DNA from: Eledone cirrhosa | Lineage: Eukaryota | Reading direction: 5' to 3' | Length of the DNA stretch: 64,000 nucleotides | Assembly: GCA_964016885.1 (NCBI GenBank) | Contig: OZ024763.1 | Location: 11,656,001-11,720,000, forward strand | Shown here: piece by piece, positions 13,349 to 59,907 of the stretch | Layout: every line of letters starts with the position of its first letter | How positions within the stretch are numbered: position 1 is the first letter of the stretch | Notes under the pieces: model-generated | Databases searched by the model: none | Seen by the model: the letters and a program-made list of their open reading frames with translations, nothing else | What the model was told of the DNA's origin: nothing | Position numbers and translations under genes: made by a program

Positions 13349-14412
13349 AACCATATGTCTACACACCTTACAAACATACATATGCACACATATATACATA
13401 CACACACACATATATATACATACATACACACATATATATAAAACATATCTACACACATATACACATATACACATACACACATTTATTTAAAACATATGTC
13501 TACACACCTTACAAACATCCATTTGAAATAAGTAATTGCTTGTTAACGATCTCTGATTAATTAATTAATTATTAATTTAATAATACAAACTCTAACTCCT
13601 AATTAAGTGCAGCTCTAACGAACTAGGTGATGGAATATTGTAATATGGTGGTGGTGGTGGTGGTAGGAGTGGTGGTGGTGGTGGTAGGAGTGGTGGTGGT
13701 GGTGTTGATGATCATGGATGTGGTGATTGTAGTGGTGGTTGTGGTGATGGTGGTGTTGGTGTGTTAGTATTGGTGGTGGTGGTTGTGGTGTTGGTGTGTT
13801 AGTATTGGTGGTGATGGGGGCAGTGGTGCTAGTGGTGTTGGTGGTTGCAGTGTGGGTGATTGTGGTGGTGGTGACGGCGGCGGCTATGGTTACACTGGAG
13901 GTAGTGGTGGTGGTGGTGGTGAAGGTGCTTGTGATAGCTATTGAATCAATTAGCTCTGACAGGTAGCTCTGTCCCCTTTTTTCATTTTTAGGGTTACTTT
14001 ACCTGATTTTCTCAACTATTATTTATATGCACTCACACACACATATACAGATATATAATATACATACATACATATATATATATATATTGTTATATTTGGG
14101 GAGGGTCATGTTGTTATAATATTGCCAGAAATAATAATAAAACACACTCACTGTTTGGTTTGGATTGGTTTTCACTTCTGTATCTTTTATATCTCTATAG
14201 CTAATTTATCTGGCAATCAATGTTTATCATTGATTGACCAACGGTTAAATATATATAGTCTATCAAAGTTCTTTCATCACACACCTGTGACATCATCAGT
14301 GGTACTATTATGTTTCCTCCCGTTGTATTGTAATGTCTATATTATCATCAAGTATAATATAGAAGTTGCTTCACAAGACTAGAACTGTTTCATTTAAAAG
14401 AAATCATCAGCG

Positions 14413-27107: not shown

Positions 27108-27816
27108 ATCAAATAATGGTAGTTAAGACAGGATTAAATCACTATAATTGTTTATTGCATTATACATATTTCTGCTACATGGTTATTCATGTGACTTTGT
27201 CAGATGCTTACACAATCATAGGTGCAGCTATGCAATCATGAACCACTTCACTACTGGAGAGACGTGCATGGCCACCGGCATATCACAATGATTGCATAAC
27301 TGCACCAATGATTTCATGACCATCTGATGGAGTCACGTCAATAACCATGTAACAGAAATATATATAATGCAATAAACAATTATGGTGATTTAATTCCATC
27401 TTACCTTGATAAATGAATACTCCGACACTCATTATCACCTACCTGGGATAAACTACTGATGTGTAATGCTTTGGTTTGCTAGGACCTGCTTATCATCAGG
27501 AAGTTACTATGTAACAACCAAGATAAACAACACTCATCTGTAATTATATATATATAAAGTATATCATACACAAAACGGCAGCATCAACAGTTTTACAAGA
27601 GAAGGCAACATGAATGGACCTGTTATTTTTTTTCCCGCCCTGCCCATCTCCACAATCTTTCTATTTCTTCTTTAATTTCTCATTCTATCTTCTGATAAAG
27701 GACAAGTGTCCGAAATGTTAAGACTCTTTTCCTACTATATCAAACGTAAAACTAATAATATATTTCTTCATTGTACTGTGTTCTTTGCTTTGTTATTTAT
27801 CTTTGTCCTTTACATA

Positions 27817-27853
<37 letters not shown>

Positions 27854-28273
27854 CAAATTTAAGATAGTAATGGCTTGAAAAGGACTAGAACTGTTTCATT
27901 CAAAAGAAATCATCAGGAAACCTGAAATGATGATGATATATATATATCTATATATATCTATTGTTATACTTTGGGAGGGTCATGTTGCCAATAAGAAACA
28001 CACGCACCAGTTGCTTTCACTTCAATTTAATTTAATATATATTTATAAATTTACAAATTTATAAATTTCTGGTTGGTTGGTTGGTTCCACAACCAGATAG
28101 TTGTTTATATATATATAGTCATAGTTCTTTCGTCACACACTCTGTGACCTCTTCAGTGACTGGGGATTTCTTTCTTCGTTTCTGTGCCTTTCCTTTCTTC
28201 TATTCTACGCCATTTTGCAAAATGGCGTAGAATAGAAGAAAGGAAAGGCACAGAAACGAAGAAAGAAATCCCC

Positions 28274-28318
28274 AGTCACTGAAGAGGTCACAGAGTGTGT
28301 GACGAAAGAACTATGACT
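28274..28318 (+). ncRNA. Hammerhead motif in the Penelope pLTR (minus-strand copies at 28117-28161 and about 28757-28799)
   Basis: AGTCA-CTGAAGA-gGTCACA gagtg TGTGAC-GAAA-GAAC-TA^-TGACT. Confidence 0.8.
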
Positions 28319-28983
28319 ATATATATATAAACAACTATCTGGTTGTGGAACCAACCAACCAACCAGAAATTTATAAATTTGTAAATTTATAAATATATAT
28401 TAAATTAAATTGAAGTGAAAGCAACTGGTGCGTGTGTTTCTTATTGGCAACATGACCCTCCCAAAGTATAACAATATCGGTTTCAACACGCGATTTCAGA
28501 TAAAGAATCTTGCTAAACAAATTCAGAAACGAAATATATATATCTATATATTTCGTTTCTGAATTTGTTTAGCAAGATTCTTTATCTGAAAACGTGTGTT
28601 GAAACCGATATTGTTATACTTTGGGAGGGTCATGTTGCCAGTAAGAAACACACGCACCAGTTGCTTTCACTCCAATTTATTATAAATTAAATTTATAAAT
28701 TTAAGAAATTTGTAAATTTCCAGTTGGTTCCACAACCGGACGGTTGTTCATATATTGTCAAAGTTCTTTCGTCACACATTCTGTGACCTCTTCAGTGACT
28801 GGGGATTCTTTTCTTTGTTTTGTGCCTCTCCTTTGTCCTGTCCTACGCCATCTTGTTTTTGTGTGTGTTGTGTGCTTAGTTTGCTCATGTGTTACATCCG
28901 GGTGTCTGTGTGTGTTTTTATTTGTTTATTTACATGTTACTAGTTGATTGTTTGTTCTATGTGTGTGTGTTTTCATTTTGTCC

Positions 28984-29374
28984 TTAATTGTAAGCTGTGA
29001 TGTTGCTATTCCATTCATGTTTTCTATTTAATTTTGGTTGGAGTTCATTTATGTTTATTGCCTCTGTGATTTGTCTAAACATTGCTTCTTTTCTGTGTGT
29101 AGATTTTATTTTTATTTCTATGTTCTCTAATTTGCCCTTATGTTCTATTTTAGCATGTTGGTGGAGTACTGATGATTCTTTTCTATCTTGAAGTTCTCGC
29201 CAGTGTTCATTTAATCGTTGTCCTATACTACGAGCTGTCTCACCTATGTACACTATATTCTTATCTTTACATTGTTCCTCAGTACATCTTATGCTATATA
29301 CTATGTTTCTAGTTTTGCAGTTAATATGGGGGCTTAGTTTACAGATTATGCATTTCTTATCTATACAGGGAGGT

Positions 29375-29376
<2 letters not shown>
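28984..29376 (-). pseudogene. Penelope-type GIY-YIG endonuclease C-terminal fragment with Cys-rich linker
   Basis: Open frame RPPCIDKKCIICKLSPHINCKTRNIVYSIRCTEEQCKDKNIVYIGETARSIGQRLNEH...RQITEAININELQPKLNRKHEW, cut off upstream by a TA tract. Confidence 0.85.
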
Positions 29377-29410
<34 letters not shown>

Positions 29411-30306
29411 TGGGGGTCAGTAGTCCCACTTCAGTACTGATTTCACCTATATATATTATCATCATCATTTAACGTCTGCATAGGTGAAATCAGTACTGAA
29501 GTGGAACTACTGACCCCCAGACATGGCAAGAGGTCTGCATCCTGTTTATGTATGGTCATACGGTATATTGAGGGCAGAGAGGTTGTCATGTCCCTTGACA
29601 CAAACTGAAGGGTCCTCCCAATCCTTGTTTGGCAAGCTTTCTATGACTGGATGCTCTTCCTAACATCAACCACTCTATAGTGAGTATTGGGTGCTTTTAT
29701 TGTGTAGATCACCAGCACTAGGGAGGGTGTCATGTCCTTGAGATAACTAAAGGATTCTTCCAACCCTTTGTTTGGCAAGCTTTCTATGACTGGATGTCTT
29801 TCCTATCACCAACCACTTTACAGCGTGTACTGGGTGTATTTATTGTGTAGATGACCAACACTAGAGAGGTTGTTACAGCTGGGTGCCCTTCCTGTTGCCA
29901 GCCACCCTTATAGAACATACTGGGTGAATTTTGAAGGTTCTATCACAAGAGAGGTCACAGGCCCAACTGTAGAGCCCTCTCTGTCTGGAGAGGGAGGTAG
30001 GTATGATGTTATAGGTGTATGTGGTGATTTGGAGGTGCAATAAGTAAGGGATAGGGGATGACTGATTAGTGTATGGGAGCTACTAGGGTGCAATGCTGAG
30101 GGTATCTAAGGGCTTTAGATGGGGATAGTTAATTAATGGTTCTGGAGGGGCATGGGTGGTGGGTACACACACACACACATATCAAAAGTCTAAAGTCTGT
30201 CTTAAGCTAGCAGGCTCATTTGGCCGGTGTTTATCCAGGTTTTATGGCGTGAAATGACTTAGAGTACAAGACTCCCCGCTGGACAGGACGTCAGCCCATC
30301 GCAGGG

Positions 30307-34053: not shown

Positions 34054-34710
34054 ATGGAATCGAAAGAGTCAAAGGCCCAGCAACGTACGCAGAGAAATAG
34101 GCGTCGTATGGTGAGAGGTCAACAGCAACTGCAGGAAAAACAACACCAGGCGGCTTCGGCCCCGATGGCCACCGCAGCGGCGGCAACGGCCGCGGCCACA
34201 GCGGCGGCGGCGGCGGCCGGAGCGGGAGGAGGCAGCGGCGGCGAGGACGACGACGACGGTGCGGCGGCGGCGGCGGACGACGAGTGCGTCGTGCCCCACC
34301 CGACCCAGTCCCACCACCCCCACCATCTTCCACCGGCGGCGGCACCGGCACCGCCGCCGCCGCCACCTCTACCGCCGCCTCCTCTACCGCCGTCGGCAGT
34401 GGCACCACCCCCTTCGGTGGTCGTGGCGGCGGCGGCGGCGGCGGCCCGAACCGCCAGCAAGGATAGCAATAATAGCCACAACAACAGTAATAGCAACAAT
34501 AATAATGCTAATAATAATAATAATAATGCCAATATAAATAATAATAATAATAATCATACAAATAATAATAATAGTAATAATAATAATAAGTCTAAACCAA
34601 AACCACCTCCGCCGTCCCAGCGCCGGAGGAGAAACAGTTCCAATTCTTTCGACGAGGATATTATCGATGGCTTTGCCATTATCAGCTTCAAAACACTTCA
34701 AGATATGGAG
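34054..34710 (+). CDS. AUTS2: First coding exon (219 codons) of an AUTS2/FBRSL1/tay-bridge family gene
   Basis: ATG at 34054. GC-rich ORF ending PPPPSQRRRRNSSNSFDEDIIDGFAIISFKTLQDME, which matches the AUTS2/FBRSL1 N-terminal motif (RRRxSxSxEEDIIDGFAxxSFxTxExLE) as recalled. It is followed by a phase-0 donor GAG|GTAAGG at 34710/34711. ORF read-through to 34821 is intronic 12-bp repeat. Confidence 0.85.
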
Positions 34711-34936
34711 GTAAGGCGCCTTTTCTTATTCATTCCGTTTCTGTATATATGTAATGATATATGTAATGATATATGTAATGATATATGTAATGATATATGT
34801 AATGATTTATGTAATATATAAGATCAAAAGATCTTTTGATCTTATATATTATGTATACTCCAGTCCGACAAACTGTAGAGTGCTTCTTATCCGATATCTG
34901 CATTGCTTTATTGTACGACAATAAAACTCACCTCCT

Positions 34937-40866: not shown

Positions 40867-40978
40867 GTATGTACATGTAAATATATGTAAATCTATGTAT
40901 GTGTATATATATATATAAACATATGCATGTTAGTGTATATGTGCATATATATATATATATATGACCCTCCCCAAATAT

Positions 40979-41022
<44 letters not shown>

Positions 41023-44394: not shown

Positions 44395-44456
44395 TTTCAT
44401 TCTGATGATTGAAAGCAACATTTTTTTTGCTTTTAAGAAACCACTGGTAAATGAAA
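44395..44456 (+). ncRNA. Type-I hammerhead ribozyme motif, apparently intact
   Basis: TTTCATT-CTGATGA-TTGAAAGCAA...TTGCTTTTAA-GAAA-CCACTGG-TA^-AATGAAA, with 7-bp stem I and 10-bp stem II. Confidence 0.85.
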
Positions 44457-47270: not shown

Positions 47271-47331
47271 TTTCATTTACCAGTGGTTTCTTAAAAGCAA
47301 GAAAATTTTGCTTTCAATCATCAGAATGAAA
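47271..47331 (-). ncRNA. Hammerhead of the 44395 family, with a mutated inverted partner at 47338-47397 (+)
   Basis: Minus strand: TTTCATT-CTGATGA-TTGAAAGCAA...TTGCTTTTAA-GAAA-CCACTGG-TA^-AATGAAA. Confidence 0.8.
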
Positions 47332-47422
47332 ACATTTTTTTCATTCTGATGATTGAAAGTAAAATTTTCTTGCTATTAAGAAACCATGGGAAATGAAATA
47401 ATTGCCTTATGTTGTTTATTAC

Positions 47423-47471
<49 letters not shown>

Positions 47472-47778
47472 CTCTGTAACCTACATAGAGCACTCTTTTT
47501 TCCTGGACCTTTCCGACGGAATTACTTCATTCATACATATATATATATATTAAGTTGTTAAACAATATTCGATGATTATGTCAAAGAATGAGTTTTACAG
47601 TAGATTGGAAGCACTCAACAGTAAAATAATTTTCAGGAGTTATTAATATTAAAATATAAGTATTAATAAAATAGATGTTCTTTTGATCAATTACATTTTA
47701 TTATACATATTTCGGAAATATGTATAATAAAATGTAATTGATCAAAAGAACATCTATTTTATTAATACTTATATTTTA

Positions 47779-47824
<46 letters not shown>

Positions 47825-53974: not shown

Positions 53975-56131
53975 GTACTTGCGCTCACTGATACTGATAA
54001 GAAGATAGCCTGGAAGTGCCACTATGAGAGACTATTAAATGAGGAGAATAAATGGGAAAAAGATAGTCTGCTCCCAATCAATCCAATAGAAGGACCAGCG
54101 GTGCAAGTTAAAGGTAGTATAATAAGTAAGGCAATCAAAGATATGAAGACAGGCAAGGCAGCTGGGCCTTCGGAGATAGTTGCTGAGATGTTGAAGGCAT
54201 CTGGTATGGTGGGACACACTATGGTCACCCGTATAGTTAACCAAGTAATACAGAATGGGGGTCATACTGAAAGACTGGCGTAGCAGCATCATCATTAACT
54301 GCTACAAGGGTAAAGGGGATGCTCTAGATAGGGGAAACTATAGAGGCATTAAGTTAGTTGACCAGGTCATGAAGGTCACAGAAAGAATTATTGCGCAACT
54401 AATCAGAGAGCAAATTGATCTAGATGAAATGCAGTTTGGGTTTGTGTCGGGTAAAAGTACCACAGACGCGCTTTTCCTTGTACGACAACTACAAGAGAAG
54501 TACCTAGCTAAAAGTAAACCCCTCTACTTAGCTTTTGTAGACCTGGAGAAAGCTTTTAACAGAGTCCCCCGCTCCATTATCTGGTGGGCTCTTAGAAAAC
54601 TAGGTGTAGATGAATGGCTTGTGAGAGCTATACAAGCTATGTATAATAAAACAGTCAGTAAGGTTAGAATTAACAATGAATATTGTGAAGGATTTAGTGT
54701 AAAAGTTGGCGTTCATCAAGGTTCTGTCCTTAGCCCCCTCTTATTTATTAATGCCCTTCAGGCTATAACAGAGTAGTTCAAGACCGGCTGCCCATGGGAA
54801 CTCCTATACGCAGATGATCTAACGCTCATAGCTGAATCAATGGCTGAACTAGAGAAGAAATTTGAAACATGGAAGCATGGCCTAGAATCAAAAGGCCTTA
54901 AAGTTAACTTGTCTAAGACTAAAGTTCTAGTTTGTAGAAAGGAAAATAAGGCACAGGTGCCCTCAGGGAAATGGCTATGCTCAGTGTATAGGAAAGGAGT
55001 AGGCAGAAATTCCATTTTATGTCCCAAATGCAAAGTATGGGTGCATAAAAGATGTAGTGGGATCACAGGTAAACTATCTAAGAACGTAGACTTTATATGT
55101 GGCCAATGCTCAGGTGCAATAAGTAGCAAGTGTCCAAAGGATACTAGCTCCTTCTATTGCCCAGATGGTTCTATAGAAATAGTGGACACTTTCCGTTACC
55201 TGGGTGACGAAATCAGCAGTGGTGGAGGGTGTTCTGAAAGTACAGTCGCCAGAGTCAGAACGGGATGGAAAAAGTTCAGAGAGCTTATACCGCTGTTGGC
55301 CACAAAAAGTTTCTCTCTAAAAATGAAAGGCAGATTGTATGATGCCTGTATACGAACAGCAATGCTACATGGCAGTGAGACTTGGGCATTGTGTGCAGAG
55401 GACCTGCTAAGAATGGAATGGAACGAAGCATGCATGCTCCGTTGGATGTGTAATAGTAATATACGTGAACGGCAAAGCATAAATGAACTAAGTGAGAAAT
55501 TAGGAATAAGAGGGATCAGATGATGTTTACTTGAGAGAAGACTACGTTGGTATGGTCATGTGATGCGCATGAAAGACGACAGCTGCATAAAAAAGTGCAG
55601 GGCGATCAAAATTGATGGTAGTTACGGAATAGGTAGACCCAGAAAAACCTGGGACGATTTGATAAATTCCAACCTTACACACTTACATCTCTCTAAGACA
55701 ATGTCTCTGGACCGAGATCTTTGGCGCTACGCAGTAATACAGAAGACCCGCCTTACCTATGTACAAAGCGAAACCTACAGTCAGTAGGCACCTCTTAACC
55801 AAATATACACCCCAATCCACTACCCCTACCCTATCCTCCCACCAACAGCACGAGATAATGAGATCGAGTTCGTGTAGGTGTCACGACAAAAAACACACAC
55901 AGTCCACGCTGTAATGTGGCCGTGTAGGTAACACGGTAAAAAGTTCCCAGTGCTACACTGTAAATGTGGTTGGTGTTAGGAAGGGCATCCAGCCGTAGAA
56001 AACCTGCCAGATAGTCCTATATGAGCGAGACACGGTCACCCGACCAGCCTTGCCTCAAGTGGGACAACTCCCGTCTAACCCATGCTAGCCTGGAAAATGG
56101 ACGTTAAACGAATAGATGAAGATGATGATGA
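53975..56131 (+). mobile_element. 5'-truncated RTE-type LINE (RT, PHD-like finger, 3' UTR, (GAT)n tail), pseudogenised
   Basis: KGKGDALDRGNYRGIKL, FVDLEKAFNRVP, HQGSVLSP, LLYADDL (YADD at 54807-54818), LHGSETW. Frameshift near 54260, stops at 54774 and 55521. Confidence 0.92.
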
Positions 56132-59447: not shown

Positions 59448-59751
59448 AAAGTTTTATTTAAAATTGTTGCGTTACAACAAGTAAATATTTTATAACTGAT
59501 ATAAAGCACTCAACAAGTTTTGGAGTAGATATACGATATTAAACAAATGGAAACTATATTTATAAAACCATATTTATTTGATTATACATATTTCGGGGAT
59601 ACCATATTAAAAATATGGCATGCCTTCTTCAGATAAAATACAATATATAAACAGTTTTATAAATAATTTTGACGTACCATAAATATTGATCAACTTTTAT
59701 GATCAATATTTATGGTACATCAAAATTATTTATAAAACTGTTTATATATTG

Positions 59752-59818
59752 TATTTTATCTGAAGAAGGCATGCCATATTTTTAATATGGTATCCCCGAA
59801 ATATGTATAATCAAATAA
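59752..59818 (+). ncRNA. Hammerhead of the 6494 family, with a mirror copy on the minus strand at about 59574-59640
   Basis: TATTTTAT-CTGAAGA-aGGcATGCCATATT ttt AATATGGTATcCCc-GAAA-TATGTA-TA^-ATCAAATA. Confidence 0.7.
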
Positions 59819-59857
59819 ATATGGTTTTATAAATATAGTTTCCATTTGTTTAATATC

Positions 59858-59907
<50 letters not shown>

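Follow-up and report, generated by a model that had tools for sequence, protein, structure and literature searches.

Three pLTR copies of a Penelope-like element (PLE) lie next to one another in a 64,000-nt stretch of Eledone cirrhosa DNA (the window, that is, the whole stretch analyzed). The arrangement is probably the product of two insertions by sister subfamilies of one PLE with a C-terminal endonuclease (EN), which would have met tail-to-tail in one TA tract; the hairpin A+B would have arisen by two-nick priming or by snap-back.

Anatomy of the locus

The features of the locus are compiled in Table 1. The copies A and B form a palindrome that spans positions 27959 to 28476, with arms of 259 nt each that are 100% complementary and are joined without a spacer (0 nt) at CATTTTG/CAAAATG (28217/28218). 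The 5′ ends of A and B coincide, and the two outer ends are both 3′ ends of the element, tailed in B and tail-less in A. Copy A ends at most 1 nt from the terminus of two other remnants in the window (14084 and 40986). As A has no tail and ends where these remnants end, A and B end at the two natural PLE termini. The motif at the start of the arms, CAARATGGCG, occurs in the window only at the three copies A, B, and C and is missing from the remnant at 14 kb; it resembles a YY1/initiator motif, a weak hint that the arms may begin at the 5′ end of the transcript.

Table 1. Features of the locus, with positions numbered from the first letter of the window
Feature	Position	Strand	Remark
Candidate 10-bp TSD, left copy, ATATATATCT	27950..27959	+	further copy at 27940-27949
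Copy A, inverted solo pLTR without tail	27959..28217	-	stops after codon 8 of the ORF start
Minimal type-I hammerhead motif in A	28118..28161	-	core at 28156
Copy B, pLTR identical to A, head-to-head, no spacer	28218..28476	+
Minimal type-I hammerhead motif in B	28274..28317	+	core at 28279
PLE ORF start, 28 codons across pLTR end and tail	28452..28535	+
PLE tail of B, ~59 nt	28477..28535	+	end blurred by the TA tract
TA-rich spacer between the tails of B and C, 14 nt	28536..28549		opens with right copy of candidate TSD (28536-28545)
Tail of copy C	28550..28608	-	two synonymous differences from B
Copy C, pLTR of a putative sister subfamily	28609..28855	-	ATG of the ORF start at 28633
Minimal type-I hammerhead motif in C	28757..28800	-	core at 28795; loop 2 and H17 changed, fold kept
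3′ UTR, AC-rich, 128 nt, from EN stop to pLTR	28856..28983	-
5′-truncated ORF end: CX4CxxC linker, 7-aa spacer, GIY-YIG EN (CCHH, R, E, N)	28984..29376	-
(TA)n tract where C is truncated at its 5′ end	29377..29407

A second, diverged fold joins B and C, with its center (28542/3) in the TA-rich spacer. Without gaps, its arms extend over 28375-28540 and 28545-28710 and are 93% identical; with gaps, the fold covers 28218-28855 at 86.5% identity (29 substitutions in 305 aligned columns and 4 indels), and the 46 bp nearest the center are perfectly paired. Both folds were found where the original prediction had placed them, that is, identical 259-bp arms around 28217/28218 and a diverged fold near 28543. 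Its further claim that the third copy continues into a GIY-YIG frame was right about the open frame and its Cys linker, but the copy does not run into that frame: on the minus strand, linker-EN, 3′ UTR, pLTR, and tail follow one another in this order, and 128 nt separate the end of the EN frame, which is upstream, from copy C.

Several features of the neighborhood were also recorded. Directly beyond the TA tract at the 5′ end of C, a different element is represented by a 45-bp inverted repeat with one mismatch and a 29-nt spacer containing a CAT repeat (29406-29524), and a MITE-like inverted repeat with 119-nt arms of 84% identity is located at 27121-27406. What is probably the first coding exon of a host gene begins 4.7 kb from the locus (34054-34711, plus strand) and runs up to a splice donor; the exon had no Pfam match, and its FDEDIIDGFAI motif resembles that of AUTS2/tay-bridge proteins. 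The plus strand also carries two LINE remnants, one with RVT_1 and a PHD-like finger, interrupted by a stop (54249-55523), and one C-terminal fragment with a weak match to DUF6451 (1048-1614).

The endonuclease and its relatives

The frame upstream of copy C is open for 130 aa and matches PF01541 with an E value of 2.7e-5, above the cut-off. Its translation contains C31, C36, H74, H79, R54, E104, and N117, most of which are conserved among relatives, that is, the GIY-YIG EN with CCHH and the conserved R, H, E, and N of EN+ PLEs. A CX2-5CxxC linker and the CCHH motif are described as PLE features (PMC8557442). The EN is followed by the stop codon and the 3′ UTR, and the copy is truncated before any RT; the window itself contains no RT of the element. 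A tBLASTn search of the 64-kb window found no second EN copy, so the full element is not recoverable from the window.

Word-index protein searches with the EN gave no match, but a full HMMER scan found relatives, with 1479 matches at E ≤ 0.001, the top listed one being XP_052825841.1 from Octopus bimaculoides. Among the best 150 of these 1479 matches, 19 are at least 400 aa long, and in 10 of the 19 the EN is preceded by a YxDD RT motif. In a tree of 36 of the 37 input rows (one row without a BLAST match was dropped), the query joins XP_052825841.1 and the O. vulgaris RT-EN protein CAI9736119.1 with support values of 97/81. The tree holds neither labeled clade references nor a non-PLE outgroup and can therefore only place the query with Octopus PLE proteins; within this scope, grouping with non-PLE GIY-YIG proteins, the outcome that would have spoken against the original prediction, was not seen. 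The AlphaFold model of CAI9736119.1 (pLDDT 85.8) has telomerase RT (TERT) as its best fold match (Z 13.0, rmsd 3.8, 325 aligned). Profile searches of the PDB were uninformative for the clade: the EN weakly matched I-TevI (E 0.028) and the RT profile retrieved DRT RTs. Another O. vulgaris protein, CAI9737557.1, is named dynein regulatory complex subunit 6-like, yet its ~150 N-terminal aa are the RT of this PLE family; it is probably an annotation chimera.

Judged by its sequence, the element is a PLE, probably with a C-terminal EN, and the Penelope-like identity originally assigned to it is borne out by PF01541, the CX4CxxC linker, the CCHH motif, and the Octopus PLE relatives.

Hammerhead motifs

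A descriptor of the hammerhead had five matches in the window, one each in A, B, and C and two of another family, and 0 matches in each of 100 Markov-resampled windows. The motif in B consists of a 5-bp stem I, CUGAAGA, a bulged G, a 6-bp stem II, and GAAA-GAAC-UA. With the core C3-A9, G12-A15.1, and U16.1-H17 and with helices I and II, it corresponds to a minimal type-I hammerhead, placed in the pLTR on the sense strand of this PLE. Rfam reported nothing at the gathering score over the whole window, and the 97 sub-threshold matches in the window included no hammerhead family; these matches, mostly miRNA hairpin models fitting the palindromes, were rejected. Folding z-scores of the hammerheads were unremarkable (−1.46 and −0.78), and the RNA structure of the tail was unremarkable (z +0.6 and +1.0). 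A scan for sigma-70 promoters was set aside as not relevant to a eukaryote.

The hammerheads may self-cleave, as dimers or assisted by a protein. In a read-through RNA, the cores of A and B would be fully paired within the long duplex, and because they are buried in these 259 bp, an active ribozyme pair from this locus is unlikely. The three hammerheads of the original prediction were thus recovered by the descriptor, with no Rfam match, and its proposed tie between a hammerhead family and a Penelope endonuclease holds, as the hammerhead sits in the pLTR behind the PLE EN. This link has been known since 2014 (PMC4209133). The second hammerhead family, with a 10-bp stem II and a 6-bp stem I, is present at 44402 (+) and 47324 (−); the latter copy lies head-to-head with a degenerate partner in a hairpin at 47284-47386.

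The tail as the start of the ORF

In both B and C, a frame of 28 codons begins at an ATG 25 nt short of the arm end and continues through the extension, so that the locus has the pLTR with ORF start and tail (~59 nt) of EN+ PLEs. In a comparison with a profile built from the N-termini of six relatives, the peptide encoded by the pLTR end and the tail ranked first among the 840 stop-free, Met-started 28-mers of the window, with 12.4 bits versus 3.9 bits for the next best, a score that was reached in 0 of 2000 shuffles. Without the seed protein in the profile, the score was 8.7 bits, reached in 3 of 2000 shuffles. When the peptide was compared by BLASTP with one full-length relative, the similarity was weak (E 0.12; post hoc shuffle p = 0.025). 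The profile results show that the pLTR end and the tail encode the N-terminus of the element's own ORF.

Divergence between copies B and C

The divergence between B and C is uneven along the fold (chi2 p = 0.0035). Substitutions were found at 9/56 positions in the 5′ part, 2/43 in the hammerhead, 14/81 in the AT-rich spacer segment (plus 3 indels), 2/41 in the segment before the ATG, and 2/84 in the coding segment. Both coding differences are synonymous, and coding sites differ less than non-coding sites (27/221; Fisher p = 0.008); with just two coding differences, the chance that all of them are synonymous is ~4%. Two further changes in the remnants at 14 kb and 41 kb are synonymous, too. The tail behaves as selected coding sequence. 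The hammerhead, located 220-260 bp from the center, is also less diverged than its flanks (2/43 versus 23/137; p = 0.046), and the remnant at 14084-14301 conserves the same two blocks, the hammerhead and the ORF start. In simulations, the EN frame survived with a probability of 0.0002-0.01 if indels were included and of 0.07-0.26 if they were not; with C bearing half of the non-coding divergence, survival was ~1% and 26%, respectively.

As far as sequence comparison can tell, the patchy divergence and the intact EN are more in keeping with selection acting on active lineages than with decay at this site. Because the divergence is uneven, the hammerhead and the ORF start are spared, the changes are synonymous, and the EN is intact, we infer that two source lineages met tail-to-tail. 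Alternatively, a single insertion with a tail-to-tail inversion, by which B arose from C, could have decayed in place, A being a later fold-back of B. Such a history, which we consider unlikely, would account for the different identities of the two folds (100% versus 86.5%) and for the identity peak near the B/C center, and self-priming in the sense orientation would give tail-to-tail repeats (PMC3846280). It does not account for the sparing of a hammerhead more than 200 bp from that center, for coding changes that are synonymous next to an intact EN frame, for target-like TA DNA at the center of the fold, or for an arm A that ends at a natural terminus of the element. The 46 perfect base pairs at the center count against the reading as two insertions, as inverted-repeat gene conversion could also yield them, and so do the low numbers of differences counted. 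Of the original prediction, the two events remain likely, whereas the older inversion of the same insertion is not supported by the patchy divergence, the synonymous changes, and the intact EN.

Target site and mode of insertion

The sequence ATATATATCT directly flanks A+B on both sides. Since a third copy adjoins the left one, and 35 of the 618 tracts of at least four AT in the window (~5.7%) are interrupted alike, with CT next, it is only a candidate TSD, suggestive in low-complexity DNA. In A. vaga, TSDs of 8-10 bp have been described (PMC3846280). The 5′ truncation, the inverted pLTR, and the AT-rich target are as expected for a PLE, and a short TSD is ambiguous in a microsatellite.

Under the preferred reading, one (TA)n tract would have been the target of two retrotransposition events of opposite orientation; the numbers used here are labels and imply no order. 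In event 1, a tandem read-through RNA would have been reverse-transcribed by target priming from its tail end as far as the RT-EN linker, leaving linker-EN-3′ UTR-pLTR-tail as copy C. In event 2, the young solo-pLTR hairpin A+B would have been inserted. Most likely, reverse transcription of pLTR RNA was primed from each of the two staggered nicks, beginning at the internal start sites on either side of the tail, and the two cDNAs were joined at the 5′ end they share, which is that of the RNA. Two-nick priming is favored because PAc has been observed in vitro to nick both strands and to extend both, with two internal start sites between which the tail lies (PMC11167929). Snap-back of the cDNA, a self-priming that has been proposed for head-to-head palindromes (PMC3846280), would give the same product. 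The hammerheads would be passengers of the pLTR.

The tails of B and C are merely 14 nt apart and both units look young, which could also mean that a single concerted event produced the whole locus: a PLE RNP dimer, loaded with RNAs from both subfamilies, would have made A+B and C at one cut. For PAc, a dimer extending both strands is indeed predicted (PMC11167929). Three priming events would then be required at one site, and the candidate TSD brackets only A+B. Moreover, as the window has 329 TA tracts and such tracts are often targeted, independent hits are unsurprising, and we regard a concerted origin as quite improbable.

Fold-back chimeras have no differences and no spacer, and this is also the appearance of A and B, which show zero differences over 259 bp and a zero spacer. 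Arm A might accordingly be a fold-back artefact of assembly or library preparation, with B plus C as the true locus. Structures of this kind are known to trouble assemblies (PMC8557442). We nevertheless hold an artefact to be very improbable: A stops at the tail-less terminus common to two other remnants, lacks the tail as published for PLEs, and is flanked by the candidate TSD, and similar hairpins in the window have a loop of 7 nt or 1 nt, one of them with a mismatch. The presence of two other one-sided hairpins at TA tracts weakens this explanation further.

These hairpins are located at 47646-47782 (68-bp arms, 1-nt loop) and 59529-59863 (164-bp arms, 7-nt loop). Both abut (TA)n on one side and have extensions of 95 nt and 85 nt, respectively, to (TA)n on the other, and they share a 21-nt motif with each other (20/21); they are at most candidate PLE insertions. 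Older or tiny remnants of the same family as the locus are present at 14084-14301 (−), 40961-40986 (+), and 40813 (+); two of them stop within (TA)n at the tail-less terminus, and the hammerhead of the 14-kb copy is degenerate.

If the locus arose by two insertions, what looks like an old inversion can in fact come from two insertions that met in a microsatellite. The hairpin A+B would be a clean example in which both RT start sites, tail-less and tailed, are present in one structure, in agreement with the in vitro result for PAc.

A conserved insertion between RT3 and RT4

Among the EN matches listed, the RT4 motif G[GA][APS]IG is present in 9 of the 9 readable ones, and the spacing between RT3 and RT4 is 131-133 aa in all 5 that reach RT3, so that an insertion is conserved; in CAI9736119.1, the spacing is 131 aa. 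The RT-bearing relatives mostly have TDKSG. A spacing of 127-151 aa together with G[GA][APS]IG was observed in 57 of 59 measurable relatives, out of 69 examined, most of which were fetched as homologues of one such protein. By hand counts in Fig. S1, the Nematis row of C. remanei has GLAMG and an RT3-RT4 spacing of ~63 aa, compared with ~132 aa in the relatives here, and one Naiad has ~84 aa. The additional ~60-70 aa in the relatives are confidently modeled (AlphaFold, CAI9736119.1) and were placed at the telomerase IFD position by fold-search ranges, not residue by residue. In the published account, the IFD is present in N-terminal-EN PLEs and in some Coprina and is absent from canonical PLEs (PMC8557442).

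It is conceivable, if rather doubtful, that C-terminal-EN PLEs include a large unnamed lineage with an insertion at the IFD position (ORFs of ~1,050 aa, a Nematis-like EN, TDKSG and G[GA][APS]IG, and an insertion of ~60-70 aa), of which the element is a member, and that the hairpins record two-nick priming at two start sites. A literature search, with Repbase, Dfam, Arkhipova 2006, and Lunse 2017 outside its scope, found no paper that names such a lineage, and GAIG/GPIG had 0 matches in the available text of the Craig supplement. If the insertion is the equivalent of the IFD in a C-terminal-EN lineage, it bears on the relationship between PLE and telomerase RTs; spacerless, one-tailed hairpins in octopus TA tracts would then be countable genome-wide as records of priming.

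Comparison with known systems

The short CX2-5CxxC linker before the EN, the position of the EN at the end of the ORF, and the CCHH motif resemble Nematis. By hand counts, CxxC and the following Cys are 7 aa apart, as in three Nematis rows in Fig. S2, in contrast to 25-27 aa in four rows of Neptune, which has a long linker; the 7-aa gap is shared by 50 of the 82 measurable EN matches among those listed. The Penelope/Poseidon clade lacks a CxxC linker, whereas CX4CxxC is present here. Naiad and Chlamys have an N-terminal EN and no canonical hammerhead; in the present element, the EN is the last part of the ORF and there is a hammerhead. The Hydra clade, with a CxCX5C linker and without CCHH, differs as well from the CCHH and CX4CxxC found here.

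Hammerheads in pLTRs have been on record since 2014, opposite-strand pairs at distances of 100-700 bp among them, and the present motifs share with those minimal PLE hammerheads the intact core, a helix I of 4-5 bp, the bulged base before helix II, the G10.1-C11.1 pair, and a near-absent helix III (PMC4209133). They differ from them in a helix II of 6 bp and in a loop 3 (GAAC) that is only partly self-complementary, so that a dimer helix would hold two A-A mismatches. The Poseidon element PAc of Anolis (PMC11167929) has in common with the locus the AT-rich target and a tail within the ORF start that is bounded by two RT start sites; it belongs, however, to the Penelope/Poseidon clade, and its ORF starts inside the hammerhead, whereas the ATG lies ~140 nt past the cleavage site here.

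Canonical EN+ insertions have 8-10-bp TSDs, comparable to the candidate 10-bp TSD, and published tails of 30-40 nt, shorter than the ~59 nt here. In contrast to them, the hairpin contains no ORF body and has zero spacer or overlap, and a copy of a putative second subfamily abuts it tail-to-tail. The closest parallels are Pen2a_Av of A. vaga and Penelope of D. virilis, in which a head-to-head inverted pLTR, a one-sided tail, and an AT-rich target are likewise combined (PMC3846280, PMC8557442); in Pen2a, the first ORF codons number 12 for the pLTR and 22 for the tail, compared with 8 and 28 here. Penelope-like elements have already been cataloged in O. vulgaris (PMC13282606). PLEs typically target (TA)n and have inverted 5′ pLTRs with a tail on one side (PMC8557442, PMC8969392, PMC3846280), and the anatomy of the locus is known PLE behavior.
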